Of a stretch of DNA of 24,548 nt, positions 1 to 18,564 are shown piece after piece. Below the pieces are notes generated by a model. It saw only the letters and a list, made by a program, of their open reading frames with translations, had not been told where the DNA came from and did no database searches. Numbering within the stretch: the stretch's first letter is position 1; every line of letters begins with the position of its first letter. Made by a program: the position numbers and the translations under genes. This DNA is from Planctomycetota bacterium (GTDB lineage: Bacteria > Planctomycetota > SZUA-567 > H5-PLA8): the NCBI GenBank assembly GCA_038227875.1, contig JBBRPR010000092.1:1-24548 (forward strand), given 5' to 3'.

Positions 1-1112
1 TCAGACCACGAAAACGTATCGGTATTGAAAGTGAATTGTGTATCTGTCCAAATGACCAATATGAGATTCTTTGCATTCGATGGCATCGTAAAAGTTCCGG
101 CGAACAACTGAAACGTCGTCGTCACTGCGCACGAAACGCTATTTGTTCCGATTGTTCCCTGCGCGCCCGTGGGAATCGAAGCCGGGCTTCCGATGTTCGA
201 AAGATTCGTGCCCCACGTCGGTTCCGTGCTTCCGCTTCCCCACGCGGACGGAACAAGCGTCGGCATAACATCAATCGTTCCGGTTGAAGACAGGATTGCC
301 ATGCGCAAAGTTTTTGAAGACGATGCGCGGAGTTTAATTTGAAAAGTCATCTTGCGACCGGCAAGCGGAAGCGTGTTATTCGCTTCGATTACTTGGAATA
401 TTGCCTGTTTTCCGGTCGTAGTCTTTTTCGCAAGTGTGCCGTAGTAGCGCGCGCTCAACCCGGTTTGAAGCGAAGTACTTGTGTCCGTTCGCGAAAAAAG
501 CGTGTTTGAATTTTCGGACGCGGCTTTCCATCGGTCCGTGGCGTATACGTCAGCGCCTAATCCGGTTCCGATGTTTGCGCCGCCCGTGTTGCGTTGATCG
601 ACGGCGCACGCGCCGTTGATGATCAAATTATTTACCGGGCGTGCCTTAGACTCATGATCGCTCAAAAGCAACTGGCGAAAAAGAGGCGATCCGGCCGCGC
701 CATCCGGCGATGCGTAGACGAGGTTTGGCGACGCTGCGGGAAAACTGTAAAGCTGTTTCATGTTCCCATTGGTGTCGAGAACGTAAAAGCCTTCATCTTC
801 GTAGACGAGCGTATCCCCGGCATTCAGCGTGACGGTGTAGATGACGTATGAAGTCGCGCTCTTTTTCACTCGGACCTTAACCGTGTTTGTCGCGGCTCCG
901 TCGATGTTAGCCATGTACATCGTCTTGATGCAGAATTGCCCGGTTCCCGATCCGGTTAAAAGCGTGGTAGTGGTTGCGCTCGTGATCGCCGCAACGGCCA
1001 GCTTGGGCGTGTCGGTTTGCGTGTCGACGTAATTTATCGAAGAGTGGATATTCGCCGTCGACGATGTAACCAGTTCTAAAATGTCGCCACCAGCGCCGTC
1101 TAGATTAATCAT
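1..1112 (-). CDS. Tail fibre/receptor-binding-type virion protein, 3' truncated by the window edge (>370 aa)
   Basis: Absent from the ORF track because it has no stop in the window. Manual translation from ATG at 1112 (ATGA overlap with the upstream stop, GAGGA RBS) gives [19 protein letters not shown]...[15 protein letters not shown]...DRWKA...LVIWTDTQ, open to position 1. The NLIING..V.QR/DRW motif is typical of phage fibre carbohydrate-binding-like domains. Confidence 0.8.
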
Positions 1113-2323
1113 ATTCCAAAAATCCTCTGCCACCGCTTCCCGCCGCCAGCCCCTGTTGCGCCGGTCACACCGGTCGCACCCACAGGCCCCGTCGCTCCAA
1201 CGGGTCCGGTTACTCCCGCTGGCCCCGTTGCGCCTGCAGGCCCAGCAACGCCGGTCGCGCCCGTTACGCCGACGGGTCCGGTTGCTCCCGCTGGCCCCGT
1301 TGCGCCCGCAGGACCCGCCACGCCGGTCGCTCCAACTGGCCCCGCCGCGCCGCTAGGCCCTGTCGCGCCCGCCGGGCCGGTCGCGCCCGTTGGCCCAACC
1401 ACGCCAGTCACGCCGATCGGTCCAGTTGCTCCCGCTGGTCCCGTTGCACCAGCCGGGCCAGTGACTCCCGTCGATCCGATTCCGCCAGTGACGCCTGTTG
1501 CGCCGATTGGACCCGTAGCGCCCGCTGGCCCGGTCGCGCCAATGGGTCCAGTAGATCCAGCGCCGCTCGGTCCAGGAGCGCCACCGCCGCCGCCCAGTCC
1601 GGTATGCTTTACCCACGGACCAGACGCGCCGACGTTGTAGAGTCCGTTTTGCGTAGGATCAGTCTGCGCGGTCAGGCCGACTACCATCCCCGCCGTGAGG
1701 GTGACAGAGCCTTCGGTAGTGACGCTGCCGTCGATGGCGACGTTGCTCGTAAAGCAGACGTCGATCTCCTCGAACGTGTTCTGACCGCCGCCGCCAGCGC
1801 TGGGAATACTGACCAGGGCGCGATGAATGTCGGTACCTGTATATGCGTCTTCATTGACGATCTGCCCACCGGCCGCACCGGTAGTCATGTACGTTTGCCC
1901 GGCAACAATGCCGACAACGTTTGATGTGTCGCCCCCGCTGCGCTTGATAAAAACAGGTGTGACACCAACGATCATCGCCTTGCCACATTCACCAGATTTC
2001 ACGGGCTCCTGTAGCACTGCGAATTTGGCTTCATAGCCAGCAACGGGAGTGATAGCCGCGTGAATGTAACTACGGTGATCTTCGCCGTCGCTGGGATCTG
2101 TCAGCAGCGCGTCCACGCCGACCGCCGAGAAAACATCGAGATCGGCACCGGTGTCATTGCGGACGATGATGATGCCAGCGCGCGCGGCCGCGACGGCCTC
2201 GCCAGAGCTAGCGCCGCCCGCCTGCCGAGACCTTTCGGTCTGCGCAGCATCAATCATCGAATTCACAGTCGACGGTTTCAGCTTGAACTTCTGAAACGAT
2301 GCGACCTTAATTCCGCCTTGCAT
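1109..2323 (-). CDS. Tail-tip/fibre protein with C-terminal collagen-like (Gly-X-Y) domain
   Basis: 404 aa; N-terminal tail-tip-like domain, a common phage fibre module ([24 protein letters not shown]), then about 46 uninterrupted G-X-Y triplets. Confidence 0.85.
1145..1558 (-). repeat. Collagen-like coding repeat ([12 protein letters not shown] triplets)
   Basis: 9-nt periodicity; a near-identical 72-nt-period duplication is visible at about 1200 and 1272 (acgggtccggtt[a/g]ctcccgctggccccgttgcgcc). Confidence 0.95.
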
Positions 2324-2325
2324 GA

Positions 2326-3666
2326 CTACCTCGCGCTGAATGAAAATTTCGTCGACGGCGGATTGAACGTGCCGATGGTCAGCACGGACATGTCAGCAGT
2401 AAGCGTCGCGGTTCCACCCGACTGCCAATTCATTGTGGTTACCGTTCGACCGCGCGACGATCCGGTGAAGTCGACAGTTCCTCCGTACAAATTCATCGTC
2501 GTGATTGTGCCGGTCGAATTCGACTTGAGCGCGCCCGCATAGAGATTGAGCGTGGTAATTGCAAACGCGCCTTCAACCTGCAGCGTGCCCGCTTTGACAT
2601 TGCAAGTGGTCACTGTCGCGCCCGCCTGCAGTTTGTTTGTGCCTGAGTATTGTTCCCACGTCGTCATCGTGGTGCCGAGTCCGGTCACAACTTTTGAACT
2701 GCCGGTGAGATCAGTGATGGCCATCTTGCGAAGCGTGGAGGTCTCGCCGTTCTGATCGATGGCGACACCGAAGCCGCCTGGAGCGGAGCGGACGAAGCAA
2801 TCGAGCGACGCGCTATTGCATTTGATCCGGACCGCTGGCCGGCTGGACTCGGCCGCGCTGGAACTTGTGTTCTGAATTTCAACCGTGCCCGCCGACGTAC
2901 CGAGGTCGAGCATAATGCGCCGGGAGCCCGCGAGCGTGGTTCCTGCCGTCGAATTGTTTTCGCCGATAACGACAAGCTGCGAACTTTGCAGTCCGATCTG
3001 CAGATAAAGCGGCCGGTATTCCGTGTAGAGCGCATTACTCGTGTTGCCATCGGCCGACGTTGTGAACACGCTTCGGTTGAGTCCAAGCAAGCCGGTGAAG
3101 CTCTGCATGATTCGCAGCGAGTTGACCGTCACAGCGGATTGATTGAGCCCGTAGGAAATGTTCAGTGAGGAATCGTTGACGACGACGTCGTCACCATTCA
3201 CGGGCACCGCGCCTGTCGACCAATTCGCGGCCGTACTCCAGTCAGTCGGGCCAGCGGAAGCCGTATCTACACCACCCGCAGCGCCGAACGCACTCACGCT
3301 TCCCGATCCCGCTCCCGATTTCGAAATGACTGCGGTGAACGGGACGCCTGCTGTGAGCGACGTACCCGTGACCTTCGCGGCGCTGGGATTTGTCCAGGCG
3401 ACGGCCGTGAAATACGGATGCGTCGACGCGGTGCAGGCGGCCACAAGCGCAGCGGCCGTCGTATTGGCGTTCGTGATCCCAGTGACAGTCACTGCGACAC
3501 CGCCGATGGTCACAGTGAACGTATTGTTCGCGGGAGTGCCGTCGACGGAAGCAATCGCGGCCGTCGCGACCTGCGCAACGGCAGGCGCGTTGCCGATCCA
3601 GATCGGCGTTGCCGCCGCGACGTGGAGCGAGAAGACGAAAAGAAATGCCAGTGCAAGCTTTCGCAT
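2326..3666 (-). CDS. Signal-peptide-bearing beta-rich (beta-helix/adhesin-like) protein within the tail module
   Basis: 446 aa; [22 protein letters not shown]-terminus; [21 protein letters not shown] motif; C-terminal repeats ([27 protein letters not shown]). Confidence 0.75.
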
Positions 3667-8290: not shown

Positions 8291-8596
8291 TTACGGCGAG
8301 ACCGGCCGATCAATGCGGGTGAGATTCACTTCGCGTTTGGTCGTGTCCAGGACGCGGTTGGCATCGATCACGCGATAGAAGGTTTCTGTCGAAGTGTCTT
8401 CGGGAATGATGCCGACGATATCATTGATCTTCACGTCCTCGTAAAGCTCAACGATCATCGTGATCTGCGTTTTGTTTGCTTCCAAGATGCCAAACAAAAC
8501 CGTCGCAGTGCCGAGCGTCTCGGAAAAGCCGCCGTCGCCGTCAGGCACGCGGGTCGGCCGGTAGCGGTTAAAGGGATAGGGAAGTGGCATCTTCAA
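8291..8596 (-). CDS. Head closure / head-tail adaptor (SPP1 gp16-like)
   Basis: About 100 aa; RPTRVPDGDGGFSET motif; follows the connector gene; the start may be ATG at 8590. Confidence 0.78.
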   Translation of the reverse strand: MKMPLPYPFNRYRPTRVPDGDGGFSETLGTATVLFGILEANKTQITMIVELYEDVKINDIVGIIPEDTSTETFYRVIDANRVLDTTKREVNLTRIDRPVSP

Positions 8597-9216
8597 GTCC
8601 TCGCTTTTGATTTCAAGGCGTAGGGCTGAATCATCTTAGCGATGTCGCTATCCACGAACGCGCCGAACTGGATTGACGCACCTTTCGCGCCGCTCGACAT
8701 CTCCGCGCCACGCGCGCGGTAGGCGCGAGTGACCAACGCCAGCGCGGCCTGCTTGAGCAGGGCCGGGGCCGTGGCATATCCGGCGGTGTAGTCGGCTCGG
8801 TAGCGTCCCATGCCGTCCATGAATCGCACCCAGTACGCCCAGCGGTTTTGCTGCATTGAAAGATCGTAGACCGTGGGCTGCAGCCACGGGACGCCGGTAC
8901 CAGGATCCGCGCGGACGATGCGCCCCTTGCCGATCAACGCCACCACAATGAGATCACCGGTAACGCGATCAATCACAGTGGGGTAGGTTTGGCCGGACTG
9001 CACCGTCAGAGCCGTCACAGGCCGACTAGAAGGGAAGAGGATGCCCATCCCGCCGTCGAGATCCTCTTCAACGGCCGAACTGCCGAATTTGATTCCTAAA
9101 TGGGTGGCGAGGAACTCTTCCGAGGCGTCGCACAGGATCTGGATTACGGCATCCTGCGCCGTGTGCCCTACCATTAAATAAGCCTTTGCCGTGGCCAGAT
9201 CGATGATTGTGCTCAT
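8593..9216 (-). CDS. Head-tail connector protein (HK97 gp6 / phiE125 gp8-like)
   Basis: IDLATAKAYL...QDAVIQILCDASEEFL and YTAGYATAPALLKQAALALV motifs. Confidence 0.9.
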   Translation of the reverse strand: MSTIIDLATAKAYLMVGHTAQDAVIQILCDASEEFLATHLGIKFGSSAVEEDLDGGMGILFPSSRPVTALTVQSGQTYPTVIDRVTGDLIVVALIGKGRIVRADPGTGVPWLQPTVYDLSMQQNRWAYWVRFMDGMGRYRADYTAGYATAPALLKQAALALVTRAYRARGAEMSSGAKGASIQFGAFVDSDIAKMIQPYALKSKART

Positions 9217-9332
9217 TTTAGCCCAATGCCTCCGTCTGACAGCCCTGCAACGTTGGATAGATCGCGCTGTGGGCGATTATCTCATTCAAAAGGCAAGAAC
9301 ATGGGGATTGACGTATCCGAGCGCTATAAACG

Positions 9333-9413
9333 GCGGGAATTCATCCTCGGGGCGGGCTGGGCGTAACTGTGGAGGAGGTCAGTCCGCTTCCAGCGCCCCG
9401 AGGCGATTCCCGC
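9333..9413 (-). other. Long imperfect RNA hairpin with ACCUCCUCCA loop, directly after the decoration gene stop
   Basis: Nested pairings GCGGGAAT/ATTCCCGC, CCTCGGGGCG/CGCCCCGAGG, CTGG/CCAG, GCG/CGC and GACTG/CAGTT. Confidence 0.75.
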
Positions 9414-9415
9414 GA

Positions 9416-10270
9416 TCAGTTGGTTTCGACCGTCATGGCGTAACAGAGAATGTCGTTCGCGGCCGTGCCCGATTGACCGCTTACCTTAATAGTAATGGCT
9501 CCCGTCTCGGTTTCTGCACCCGCTGCCGAGTAGTCCGTGATGTTGACGGTATCGTGTACCATCTTACCAAGCACCTGCTGCGTACTTGCGCCGGTGCGGA
9601 TCACGGTCAGTTCGGCGTGCCAGTTTTTGTTCGAATCGGTCAGTACCCCGGAGGTAATGACCTCCGAACCGAAGTAGAGCTTGATCGTCTTGTTATTTCC
9701 GGTTGTCGCGCAATGGCCCCACGCATGGATTTTCAGCACCTGGTTGGCGGAAGTGAGCGTGTTGGCGGGCAGTGCATACGTGAAAAGCACGTCTTCGCTG
9801 GTATCCGTGTTCGCCGCGCCGGTCGCGCTGGACTGTGCGCTGAGCACGCCATTGGATTTCCCGGTAAGCACGACGTCGCAGATATCCCCGTCGCTGGTCG
9901 TAGCGTTGAGCGCGATGCCCAGGCGTCGAGTAGCGGCAGTTGCAGTGATCTTGCCGACGGTATCGGGATAGACGTTCGCGCCCGCCGTGATCGCGCCGCT
10001 GGCCGTCAGGGAAAATACAGGCCGAAAGAGCAGCACGGTTACGCCGCCGCCGGATGCCGTGGTTTGCAGCGCACGCCCAATCGCTTCGTCGGCAGTGCTC
10101 GCCTGGGCTACCGAGTTCGCGCCGGAAACCTTGACCAGATTATTTGCCGTGATGGCACCGGACGCGGTGAAGCTCCGGCTATTTTCGGCGTCGCCAGCGA
10201 AGAGCGACGGAATAAAAACGAGCATGGCAGCGAGCAGTAGGCTCGCCAGAATGTTGTTTCGAGTCTTCAT
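9416..10270 (-). CDS. Capsid decoration/cement protein (DUF2190-like) with N-terminal signal peptide and C-terminal beta-sandwich domain
   Basis: Directly after the MCP; SFTASGAITANNLVKV...AIGRAL...LTASGAITAGANVY...LGIALNA...DGDICDVVL pattern; GGGAGG RBS. Confidence 0.8.
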   Translation of the reverse strand: MKTRNNILASLLLAAMLVFIPSLFAGDAENSRSFTASGAITANNLVKVSGANSVAQASTADEAIGRALQTTASGGGVTVLLFRPVFSLTASGAITAGANVYPDTVGKITATAATRRLGIALNATTSDGDICDVVLTGKSNGVLSAQSSATGAANTDTSEDVLFTYALPANTLTSANQVLKIHAWGHCATTGNNKTIKLYFGSEVITSGVLTDSNKNWHAELTVIRTGASTQQVLGKMVHDTVNITDYSAAGAETETGAITIKVSGQSGTAANDILCYAMTVETN

Positions 10271-10301
10271 TGGTACAACCTCCCGAGTGATTTTGGTTTT
10301 T

Positions 10302-10331
10302 AAAAAGCGAGGGGCGGCAATCGCCCCTCGC
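10302..10331 (-). terminator. Rho-independent terminator after the major capsid gene
   Basis: 10-bp perfect stem GCGAGGGGCG/CGCCCCTCGC with a 5-nt loop, followed by TTTTT on the minus strand. Confidence 0.85.
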
Positions 10332-10360: not shown

Positions 10361-11803
10361 TTAGGCAGCCAGCTGCGCGAACGCGCGGAGCTCAACCGGC
10401 TTGCCGCCGACCTGAATGAACATCACGTAGACCATCACGTTCTGTTCGATCTTTCGTTCGGCGCTGCGGGCCATGATGATTTCCTGCTCGACCGGCGCGA
10501 CGTACGACGCGAAGTTTCCGAACAGCACGTCACCCTGAACGCCCAGAGCCGGGAGACGCTGCGTCGGCACCACGGGGTAACCGAGGATCGTGCCGAGGTT
10601 CGCGCCCTGACCTGCACCGGAAGTCAGCGGCACAAACAGCGGGCGATTCTGGGTGTCCTTCTGGAGCTTCACGTCCTGCAGCGCCTTGTCCTGGATCGCA
10701 AACACCGCACCCGGCCGCAACTGCGGAGCGAGAGCGTGCTCCAGATTGACGAAGTCGTCGTACTTGACGTGCGCGCTCGTCGTGCGCGCAACCGTGTTCG
10801 CGAAGCCGATGATGCCGGTCGGCCGCGTGGTTCCGTTGCCGTTGATCACGGCGCGGTCGATCTTTCCCATCAGCGAGCGGCGGAACAAATTGTCGATCAG
10901 CGATTCGATGGGAATCGTCGAACGGTTGACCAGCTGGCGGGAGAGTTCGGTGCGCGTACCGAGTTCGAACGTCGGGATGGACTGCTGTTTGAACTTCGCT
11001 TCGGTGCCGTTGATTTCCGCACCTTCGGCGGTCCAGTACGACGCCGCGTAACCATCTTCGGCGAATTCATCTGCCGAATCTTCCGCACCCGGAGCCGCCT
11101 GCACCAATTGCGGCCAGAGGATCGTGCCGTAGCTGCACGGAACTTTGTAGCAGAGCGGCCAGAGCGCGGGCGCTTCGGACGGATACTGCAGGAGGTTCTT
11201 CATGAAGTCGGCCTGGAACAAATTGGCCTCTCCCGCCGATCCGCCAGACGACATCGGCAGCGCCTTGCCCGCGTAACCCGCGCGCGAACCGCCGTTCAGG
11301 AAGGATGAGTAGTCGGACTTTCCGCCGAAGAAAGCTTCGGGCAGAATCTGCATTGCGACGATCTTGGGAACCGCGACGGCACCTTCGATATTGCCTTCGC
11401 TTTCCATCTTCCAAGAGCCCTTCGGCGCGAGCAGATCGCGGGCGTTGCCGCCGAAGCTATCCAAGGTCTTACCCTTGAAGTAGTCGCTGAAAATAATGTA
11501 GTGATCTCGCGCTTCGTTGTCGTGATTGCGCGCCTGCGCGGGCGTCTTGGTGGCGAGCGTCCTTCCCTGCACCGTAACGAGATCGTCGATGCCGGAGAGT
11601 TGCTTGCGCCGGTTGGCGTGTTTCTTAGCCTCGTCCAAATCGGCGTTCAGCTTGTCGTACTCGGCGACCTTGCCGCGATATTCGGCGAGCGCATCGGTCT
11701 TGCCTTTTTCGTCGGTGGCCTTCTCGATCTTTTCCGACGCCGTTTCCATTTCGACTAACAGACCCTCCATCTTGCCCTTCAAGAGTTTGAGGTCGAGCTG
11801 CAT
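10361..11803 (-). CDS. Major capsid protein, HK97 family (480 aa, with coiled-coil delta/scaffold domain)
   Basis: Start reassigned to ATG 11803 (GGAG RBS; MQLDLKLLK...); WTAEGAEI, DRAVINGNGTTRPTGII, KDTQNRPLF, TILGYPVV and VLFGNF motifs. Confidence 0.95.
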   Translation of the reverse strand: MQLDLKLLKGKMEGLLVEMETASEKIEKATDEKGKTDALAEYRGKVAEYDKLNADLDEAKKHANRRKQLSGIDDLVTVQGRTLATKTPAQARNHDNEARDHYIIFSDYFKGKTLDSFGGNARDLLAPKGSWKMESEGNIEGAVAVPKIVAMQILPEAFFGGKSDYSSFLNGGSRAGYAGKALPMSSGGSAGEANLFQADFMKNLLQYPSEAPALWPLCYKVPCSYGTILWPQLVQAAPGAEDSADEFAEDGYAASYWTAEGAEINGTEAKFKQQSIPTFELGTRTELSRQLVNRSTIPIESLIDNLFRRSLMGKIDRAVINGNGTTRPTGIIGFANTVARTTSAHVKYDDFVNLEHALAPQLRPGAVFAIQDKALQDVKLQKDTQNRPLFVPLTSGAGQGANLGTILGYPVVPTQRLPALGVQGDVLFGNFASYVAPVEQEIIMARSAERKIEQNVMVYVMFIQVGGKPVELRAFAQLAA

Positions 11804-17041: not shown

Positions 17042-17515
17042 TTAGTGCATGAGGCCGTGAACTGCGGCAGTGACTCCGCCGCCGAGCGCCGCGCCTGCCG
17101 CAACAAGTCCACTCAGCTTGGCTAGACCAATTCCAGTTTCCTTTTCTTCCTGAGAGAGATCCTTGACGTCGGCTTCGATTTTCTGGAAGCGACGCTCCCC
17201 CTCGGCGAGGCGCTGACTCACTGCGGACAACTCCCGACCGTGCTCCTGCAGTGTTTCGTTTTGCCGTTCAATGTCATCTTTCACTTCGTGAATTTCTTCT
17301 TTGAGCTCCTTGCGCGACGCCTCCACCTGACGCGAGATGGTTTCCATTTTCGTGTCGATGTGGCGCTGGAGTTCGAGGGAGCTCTGAGCGACGTCGCGCT
17401 GAACCTTGGCGACGTCGCGCTGAACGGCGATGGAAAATTGGGTGGTAAGCTCTCGAATGAATTCCTGATCGTGCAGGGAGAGCTTCGACTTTTCCTGCGG
17501 ATCAGAGTCAGGCAT
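17042..17515 (-). CDS. Coiled-coil protein with C-terminal hydrophobic helix (holin/lysis-associated-like)
   Basis: Start reassigned to ATG 17515 (MPDSDPQEK); long heptad region; C-terminal LSGLVAAGAALGGGVTAAV. Confidence 0.6.
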   Translation of the reverse strand: MPDSDPQEKSKLSLHDQEFIRELTTQFSIAVQRDVAKVQRDVAQSSLELQRHIDTKMETISRQVEASRKELKEEIHEVKDDIERQNETLQEHGRELSAVSQRLAEGERRFQKIEADVKDLSQEEKETGIGLAKLSGLVAAGAALGGGVTAAVHGLMH

Positions 17516-17558
17516 GATGCGCACCCTCGGGATTTTCGGGCTAGATAAGATACCATTT

Positions 17559-17568
17559 ATAGATACGC
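17559..17568 (-). promoter_or_regulatory. GCGTATCTAT motif copy 1 (putative late promoter element)
   Basis: Exact 10-mer in the AT-rich gap at the boundary between the early/middle and late gene blocks. Confidence 0.7.
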
Positions 17569-17582
17569 CGGGTTTTATGGGA

Positions 17583-18111
17583 CTATGAACTTGCATCAGA
17601 ATAACAAGATGCCAACCACGATGAAAGCCCGAGGGGAATCTCCGCGCGCGCGGCGCGCTGCTTTGACGAAAATGATTCCTTCGGCCGGTATTGAACCGTA
17701 GGTAATAAGCCGGGAACGCCATCGCCCCAAAGATAGAACGGACCAAATTTCATCGTCGGGTTTCCCAGCCAGCGCCGCGCACCGCGAACGTTCTCCATAA
17801 CAAGCGGCGCTTTCAACTTCGCTGCAATCCAGCGACAGCGTTCAATCAGTGCCAGCGATGGAGGCGGTGGATTTCTCGCTCGTGTCCACGGCATATCATG
17901 GCGCGAAAATTCATCGCAGGGTGGAGAGGCACAAACAATTTTTACCCCCCCTTATTACAGTGGGATCGTACTGTAGTAGATCACAAACAATGAGCTCGCC
18001 GGGATAGCCGAGATCGACAACGTCGACGCCGATGCAGCGGAAGCCGAGCGGCAGGAATCCCTTCGTCCAGCCGCCCTTTCCGCAGCACAAATCGAGCATA
18101 ACCGGGCGCAC
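17583..18111 (-). pseudogene. Compact C5-cytosine DNA methyltransferase-like gene split by a frameshift in a G7 tract
   Basis: Motif I LDLCCGKGG in ORF 17911..18111; removing one G from G7 (17945-17951) gives IRGVKIVCASPPCDEFS (motif IV) fused to ORF 17583..17894, which has motif VI MENV. Confidence 0.85.
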
Positions 18112-18564
18112 TTACTCGCAGCCCTTTTCGTCGAATTTCGACGCAGGCACGTATCCATTGGGACAATAGAAACCCCATTGCCGGGATTTCGGTCCGGTGA
18201 TTACTAGCGTCCAGCACGGCCGTTTCGTGCCATCTGGATTGCTGCGTAACTCGACGCGATGTTGATAGTCGGCGCGATGGAATTCGATTGAGCCAGCGCG
18301 GCGCAGCCGTCCCTCCAGCCAGCCGCTCGCATAGTTCGGTGTCAGATCCAGGTACATACCCTTGAGCATCAGCGAAAGAAACCACCACGGATGATCGTGC
18401 GGCGCGCGATCATCGTCATCCCGCAGGAATTTGTGGATGAAGATCTTGAAGAAGCGATTCTGCGGGATCACGTACCAGCGCAGCATATACGGATTGGCTT
18501 CGCCGCCAATTCGTTCGTGCGGTTGACCAGAAATCAGAATTCGGAACCATTGCCAAATCGTCAT
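18112..18564 (-). CDS. Cupin-fold protein (phage cysteine-dioxygenase-like family)
   Basis: HKFLRDDDDRAPHDHPWWFLSLML, HRVEL and WTLVITGP..RQWGF motifs. Confidence 0.8.
   Translation of the reverse strand: MTIWQWFRILISGQPHERIGGEANPYMLRWYVIPQNRFFKIFIHKFLRDDDDRAPHDHPWWFLSLMLKGMYLDLTPNYASGWLEGRLRRAGSIEFHRADYQHRVELRSNPDGTKRPCWTLVITGPKSRQWGFYCPNGYVPASKFDEKGCE

Follow-up and report, generated by a model that had tools for sequence, protein, structure and literature searches.

Two outer proteins of an HK97-type tailed phage carry predicted bacterial secretion signals

A siphophage late region in the genome bin of a sediment bacterium

The window analysed here is a complete contig of 24,548 bases from the genome bin of a bacterium from sediment (9.34 Mb in 176 contigs). 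All recognisable genes of the window lie on the minus strand and together make up a siphophage-type late region. It opens with a gene in the small-terminase position, followed by those for the large terminase, portal, a Mu-F-like protein, an S78 prohead protease and an HK97-type major capsid protein (MCP). The gene studied here, further referred to as the target, comes after the MCP gene and precedes those for a gp6-like adaptor, neck and tail-completion proteins, the tail tube and the tape measure. Three tail-end proteins and a collagen-like fibre close the region. With its terminase, portal, prohead protease and tape measure, the phage is an HK97-type tailed phage.

The collagen-repeat fibre (1109..2323, minus strand; PF01391, E 7e-16) has Gly-X-Y repeats at about aa 245-395, and its gene is followed by another fibre-like ORF that is cut by the end of the contig. 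The terminase genes are immediately preceded by 17042..17746 (minus strand), whose product has a coiled coil and a hydrophobic segment at its C-terminus; its weak PHROG matches include an XhlA-type "hemolysin", and the protein may be lysis-related. The 150-aa product of 18112..18564 (minus strand) strongly matches PHROG 4786 "cysteine dioxygenase" (E 7.5e-51), an unexpected annotation for a phage protein of this size. Neither an Rfam nor a tRNA scan of the window gave a match.

The contig is assigned to its host by binning. Contig and bin agree in GC content (58.4% and 59.6%) and tetranucleotide profile (r = 0.975), which is weak support for the assignment because binning itself uses composition. 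The sequencing runs listed are three DNA runs of a single study, with none of RNA. Since the bin encodes Omp85, signal peptidase I and SecY, the host can be expected to have a periplasm and the export machinery. SecY gave two full-length matches in the bin (G000:C11:58180-59220 and C26:97247-98287, E ~1e-102 each), which may be paralogues or a sign of strain mixture (bin contamination is given as 3.99%).

A cement-lectin protein encoded next to the major capsid gene

The target gene and its surroundings include the following features:

10361..11803, minus strand: HK97-type major capsid protein gene (PF05065, E 3.6e-40), directly upstream of the target gene
10307..10331, minus strand: terminator-like hairpin (10-bp stem with 9 G-C pairs, T5) between the capsid-gene stop codon and the target ribosome binding site
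10279..10284, minus strand: Shine-Dalgarno site GGGAGG, 8 nt upstream of the target ATG
9416..10270, minus strand: target ORF, 284 aa, directly after the major capsid gene
10196..10270, minus strand: Sec/SPase-I-type leader, codons 1-25 (n-region MKTRNN, h-region I7 to I20, c-region PSLFA with Ala at -1)
9866..10180, minus strand: predicted capsid cement/decoration domain, aa 31-135 (PF09956; folded like decoration chains of Haloferax tailed virus 1, HFTV1, and like the base of phi29 gp8.5)
9419..9859, minus strand: concanavalin-A-like lectin-type beta-sandwich, aa 138-284 (structure model and fold matches)
8593..9216, minus strand: gp6-like head-tail adaptor gene, the next gene downstream of the target, after a 199-nt gap

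An earlier sequence-only reading of this DNA had described a gene right after the MCP whose product begins MKTRNNILASLLLAAMLVFIPSLFA-GDAENS and which is preceded by a strong GGGAGG ribosome binding site. The ORF and the gene order agree with this description, and the site is present at 10284..10279 (minus strand), 8 nt before the ATG. The same reading had allowed for a true start downstream of the hydrophobic stretch. The annotated start holds: the ribosome binding site stands at the first ATG, and the sole alternative in-frame ATG, GTG or TTG ahead of the domain is codon 16, which lies inside the hydrophobic core, has no Shine-Dalgarno site and does not provide a usable later start. We also considered an internal start giving a second, cytoplasmic isoform and rejected it, as Met16 is not conserved in the homologues.

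The 199-nt gap after the target gene (9217..9415) holds no ORF. When the gene was checked for the layout of a prophage-expressed "moron", the hairpin was found upstream and none downstream. A sigma-70 consensus scan, whose consensus may not fit this host, located no promoter-like site ahead of the gene.

The cement domain proposed earlier is confirmed by a PF09956 (Phage_cement_2, DUF2190) match over aa 34-133, which scores 28.2 bits against a cut-off of 24 and covers profile positions 9-101 of 103. The homologues P0002 and P0005 likewise exceed the cut-off, and PHROG 673 spans aa 32-243 of the target. The AlphaFold model (33 sequences, mean pLDDT 89) consists of a low-confidence helix (aa 1-30), a beta domain (aa 31-135) and an all-beta sandwich (aa 141-283). 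The latter has a concanavalin-A-like fold and corresponds to the extra beta-sandwich of the sequence-only reading. A PDB search by sequence gave nothing meaningful, the best matches being aldolases at E 0.5.

Foldseek related the cement domain to the decoration chains of HFTV1 (8qsy, E 1.2e-5). VIA related it to the phi29 gp8.5 head-fibre base (6qyy, Z 9.6, rmsd 1.7 over 54 residues) and the capsid accessory chains of FCWL1 (9kmg/9kmh, Z about 8). VIA matched aa 138-284 to 2a5z (Z 10.4), peanut lectin (1ciw, Z 9.7) and, at Z 9.5, the CBM2 of the Lactobacillus phage J-1 Dit (5ly8) and ERGIC-53, Z scores of 8-10 being only moderately above the stated background of this tool. Among predicted viral structures (BFVD), the lectin-like domain matches the C-terminal domains of tailspikes and depolymerases (KP34, phi15).

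At E <= 0.001, a profile search with the lectin-like C-terminal domain recovered 7,471 cluster representatives. The domain is usually located at the C-terminal end of proteins of 150-990 aa and is common on phage fibre-like and spike-like proteins. Glycan adhesion is its likely role. The target has three Cys residues; a conserved disulfide was considered and rejected, since they are not conserved as a pair among the homologues. The genome of the window contains a second copy of the lectin-like domain on another contig (G000:C58:18868-19299, that is L008:1414-1947). This 177-aa protein is leaderless, follows a capsid-like ORF and probably belongs to another prophage.

The Pfam and fold matches therefore describe the mature protein as a capsid cement domain bearing a lectin-like knob. 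The PF09956 match is modest, and the cement domain may bind the capsid. The target belongs to the PF09956 decoration family and stands out by a predicted export signal, conserved and unusual, and by its fusion to a lectin-like domain; it is a real and unusual form of a known kind of decoration protein.

The leader is conserved as a property

The sequence-only reading had also assigned a Sec-type signal peptide to the target. We revisited this call by a rule-based heuristic reading combined with conservation and found all the sequence hallmarks of such a peptide. Its 25 residues include two K/R but no D/E, the core is rich in Leu, Ile and Phe, Pro stands at -5 and Ala at -1, and the expected cut is closely followed by acidic residues. 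Position -3 is occupied by Leu in the window protein and by Ala or Val in four of the five homologues.

All five full-length homologues (P0002-P0006, 42-74% identical to the target) carry a leader. Over the 15 pairs formed by these six sequences, mean identity is 27.6% in the leader vs 59.9% in the mature part. All six leaders are free of acidic residues, their net charge is either +1 or +2, and Ala25 (-1) is an invariant column. The leader is thus conserved as a property while its sequence is free to vary, the pattern produced by selection for a signal peptide. The more distant cement proteins P0026 and P0042 are leader-bearing as well. Among the 34 candidate genes of the window, an N-terminal hydrophobic leader is found in two only: the target and 2326..3666. 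This rarity, and the presence of leaders in all five homologues despite their sequence drift, make the target leader more than a chance feature.

Other types of N-terminal signals do not fit the target. The n-region MKTRNN has no RR, as a Tat signal would, and the residue at +1 is Gly and not the Cys of a lipoprotein signal. The homologue P0006 has a Cys near the cleavage site, without a canonical lipobox. Signal-arrest-release (SAR) domains are weakly hydrophobic N-terminal segments rich in Gly, Ala and Ser; the core of the target leader, ILASLLLAAMLVFIPSLF, contains six Leu, two Ile, two Phe and no Gly. We consider it probable that the leader is a working export signal.

Leaders are rare among cement proteins

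The expectation of the sequence-only reading that decoration proteins normally lack export signals holds in our sample from 401 genomes of the same phylum, where one of 30 and none of a further six carried a leader. The six were the cement proteins found by the family profile; all are leaderless and start a few residues before the domain. A PF09956 search matched 44 of these genomes; among the best 30 loci, 29 encode leaderless proteins and one (L068) a protein with a leader. The leaderless proteins start 5-15 residues before the domain, which is the site of the predicted mature N-terminus of the target. The latter lies 8 residues ahead of the FTASG motif, where the leaderless relatives begin.

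The L068 protein (L068:1138-1911, minus strand, genome G209) is 257 aa long, starts with a hydrophobic leader and matches PHROG 122 (head decoration). Its gene comes directly after a capsid-like gene, and it is an independent case of a leader on a decoration protein. Over all searches, we found about eight leader-bearing cement proteins, a rare clade. A search restricted to the region of the cement domain returned 11 proteins only.

Of 183 proteins collected in the first searches, the rule-based scan marked 53 as carrying a leader, although a few of its calls are doubtful; another 21 were hydrophobic but fell short of the full pattern, and the other 109 were neither. In the cultured planctomycete Zavarzinella formosa DSM 19928, L001:7839-8456 (plus strand) codes for a 205-aa protein consisting of a leader and the lectin-like domain (54% identity). 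The gene belongs to a prophage head module in which portal, Mu-F, protease and capsid genes and a 146-aa ORF precede it and an adaptor gene lies beyond. The protein has a CxxxxC pair near its mature N-terminus, and Zavarzinella is outside the order (20 genomes) to which the genome of the window belongs. L017:3003-5438 and L018:2988-5438 (both plus strand) encode fibre-like proteins of 811 and 816 aa; their N-termini resemble signal peptides, and they share the lectin-like C-terminal domain. The eight ORFs of the latter locus, the fibre-like protein and its seven neighbours, gave one weak PHROG match.

Wider searches returned the C-terminal domain at most. A tblastn search of INPHARED had one match, in a Microcystis phage and to the C-terminal domain only, and found no cultured phage with the leader-cement-lectin architecture. 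Scanning viral contigs with the family alignment gave 68 pattern matches and no relative among them, and the 24 loci of a metagenome contig scan were all C-terminal-domain matches or spurious, with the contigs of the close homologues P0002, P0003 and P0006 not among them. A literature search, mostly of sources outside subscription journals, found no description of Sec leaders on tailed-phage decoration proteins.

A second leader on a tailspike-like beta-helix protein

The other leader-bearing protein of the window is encoded in the tail part of the late region:

2326..3666, minus strand: right-handed beta-helix protein (tailspike/pertactin-like), 446 aa, with a 19-residue leader at 3610..3666

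Its leader begins with MRK, ends with AAA and is followed by TPIW. The ATG lies 2 nt past the stop codon of the preceding gene, with a GGAG site ahead, which indicates that the gene is embedded in the tail operon and translationally coupled within it. The structure model (pLDDT 92, pTM 0.88), which has no barrel domain, resembles the passengers of pertactin and of Vag8 (Z 17) as well as tailspikes of phages, among them phi29 gp12 (Z 14.8). Foldseek on its own returned nothing below E 0.017 for this model.

The beta-helix protein has 679 homologues at E <= 0.001. Among the 120 listed, 114 are leaderless and start with MATxYWxG, and six have a leader exactly before this motif (the leader script flagged eight; two were internal segments and were discounted). 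Cleavage after AAA would therefore restore the usual N-terminus of the family. A midpoint-rooted FastTree phylogeny of the 120 listed sequences, built with the leader columns removed, placed five close leader-bearing sequences in an exclusive clade (support 0.995). The sixth, P0239, has leaderless sequences as its neighbours in the tree (supports 0.8 and 0.9). Beta-helix leaders were therefore gained at least twice.

Leaders of the two families appear to travel together. The beta-helix protein P0186 and the cement protein P0002 are each encoded on a contig of 33,380 bases, and P0187 and P0006 each on one of 21,819 bases, the equal sizes suggesting the same contig in both cases.

A possible route to the virion through the periplasm

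Tailed-phage particles are taken to be built wholly in the cytoplasm. The two outer virus parts described here carry what look like ordinary bacterial secretion signals, which suggests that they leave the cytoplasm before joining the particle. The target would be made as a tripartite pre-protein in which a cleavable signal peptide of the Sec type (aa 1-25) is followed by a cement domain (about aa 31-135) and an outward-facing lectin-like domain (about aa 138-284). The leader would route the chain through SecYEG, and signal peptidase I would cut after Ala25. The mature protein, starting with GDAENS, would fold and wait in the periplasm of a diderm host and meet DNA-filled capsids only after the compartments have been joined by holin lesions or lysis. 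At that point, the cement domain would bind the expanded HK97-type shell and display the lectin domain. The tailspike-like product of 2326..3666 may take the same route. We speculate that such glycan-binding outer parts need an extracytoplasmic milieu for folding or must be barred from the cytoplasm.

We give this whole proposal, from Sec export and cleavage by signal peptidase I to periplasmic hold and late capsid attachment, a probability of roughly 0.45. The leader, its conservation and add-on nature, the domain folds and the gene order are observed, whereas export, the cleavage site and attachment to the virion after export are inferred. Provided that export takes place, the chance that the target protein still ends on capsids appears slightly better than even. 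Lambda gpD, P22 Dec, T4 Soc and Hoc and the P22 tailspike attach in vitro to particles that are already complete. As decoration proteins and tailspikes of these model phages behave in this way, late addition is physically possible, and we consider it a possible step here. We know of no tailed phage that adds exported parts to its virion. It also counts against the proposal that dilution at lysis would make attachment inefficient.

More tentatively still, we suggest that some tailed phages send their outermost glycan-binding parts (decoration or lectin proteins and tailspikes) through Sec and complete assembly outside the cytoplasm at or after holin action. The trait may have arisen repeatedly by addition of signal peptides to cytoplasmic structural proteins. 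The beta-helix tree, the L068 protein and the leader protein of the Zavarzinella prophage support such repeated gains.

Alternative explanations

Both proteins could be exported without becoming virion parts. The cement-lectin protein, and the beta-helix protein with it, would then act in the envelope of a lysogen or a lysing cell, either binding or masking a surface glycan or receptor (in superinfection exclusion or in shielding progeny from debris) or aiding release, and the cement domain would be a leftover. Exported non-virion phage proteins such as lambda Bor and Lom and T5 Llp are well known. The terminator-like hairpin upstream and the 199-nt gap downstream set the target gene off as is often seen with morons, an insulated layout that also counts against the proposed route to the virion. 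The lectin-like domain often stands alone behind a leader (the 53 heuristic flags among 183 proteins, some doubtful and some possibly ordinary secreted proteins), and the eight ORFs of L018 gave a single weak PHROG match. Several observations point the other way. The sigma-70 scan, perhaps unsuited to the host, gave the target no promoter-like site of its own, and the beta-helix gene is part of the tail operon and coupled to it in translation. Surface display in a diderm needs more than Sec, and the beta-helix protein lacks a barrel domain. In each case the phage has no other copy of what is otherwise a standard virion family, and both predicted mature N-termini agree with the conserved N-termini of leaderless virion homologues. 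Together with the in vitro binding by the model-phage proteins, these two points make it more likely than not that the two proteins still join the particle. The operon-coupled tailspike-like gene and the matching N-termini thus indirectly favour a role as virion parts over repurposing as envelope proteins, and we consider the latter unlikely.

Less probable again is a leader that does not serve export and acts as a cytoplasmic membrane tether or an assembly-timing propeptide, either retained or cut by another protease. Capsid and scaffold proteins of Staphylococcus phage 80alpha have N-terminal leaders that are removed by a host protease, the phage studied here encodes an S78 prohead protease, cytoplasmic assembly is the rule for tailed phages, and the hydrophobic stretch of the target, with its 18 uncharged residues (I7 to F24), is rather long. 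Prohead proteases, however, work inside the shell, whereas decoration proteins bind outside. In both families, the arrangement of n-, h- and c-regions fits signal peptidase I, as do the helix-breaking Pro, the invariant Ala at -1 and the endings AAA, AFA, ALA and VLA, and the Leu/Ile/Phe-rich core without Gly is unlike the weakly hydrophobic SAR domains. An annotation artefact, with translation actually starting further downstream and the hydrophobic stretch either not translated or there by chance, has nothing in its favour beyond the general frequency of start-codon errors. We regard it as excluded: the strong ribosome binding site stands at the first ATG, no usable start exists from codon 16 to the domain, and leaders with conserved properties are present in all five homologues, which come from separate contigs.

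If leader-bearing decoration and tailspike proteins do reach virions, the last step of assembly would take place outside the cytoplasm, and this assembly route would be new. The recognition of structural genes in metagenomes would change as well, since proteins with a leader are usually classed with the genes for host interaction or lysis. Such a route could also serve to display proteins that fold only in the periplasm on phage particles. If the proteins are not on virions, they would be a clear case of structural domains recruited to an envelope function.

Comparison with known systems

The closest counterparts of the target are the PF09956 cement proteins, together with fold relatives from HFTV1 (8qsy), phi29 (gp8.5, 6qyy) and FCWL1 (9kmg/9kmh), which it resembles in Pfam match, fold and the position of its gene after the MCP gene. 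Unlike the PF09956 sample, in which 29 of 30 proteins are leaderless, the target has a 25-residue Sec-type leader and a fused lectin-like C-terminal domain. The latter shares its concanavalin-A-like, lectin-type sandwich with carbohydrate-binding modules displayed on virions, such as the CBM2 of the phage J-1 evolved Dit, the C-terminal domains of the KP34 and phi15 tailspikes and T4 Hoc, itself a virion-displayed module. Those proteins are leaderless and are synthesised and assembled in the cytoplasm, whereas in the target the module, with putative sugar binding, is fused to a cement domain behind a predicted export signal.

Tailed phages do export proteins through Sec, the examples being non-virion proteins: SAR endolysins, the spanins Rz/Rz1, T5 Llp and lambda Bor and Lom. 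They share with the target the use of the host Sec system, and some are encoded in late operons. However, none of them has a decoration or tailspike fold, and the target leader, with its strongly hydrophobic core and AXA-type end, is neither a SAR domain nor a lipobox.

The filamentous phage coat proteins pVIII and pIII have signal peptides and are assembled at the membrane. They resemble the proposed route as virion proteins which pass through Sec and signal peptidase before assembly. Filamentous phages, however, extrude without lysis, whereas the phage described here is of the HK97-type tailed kind, with a terminase, portal, prohead protease and tape measure.
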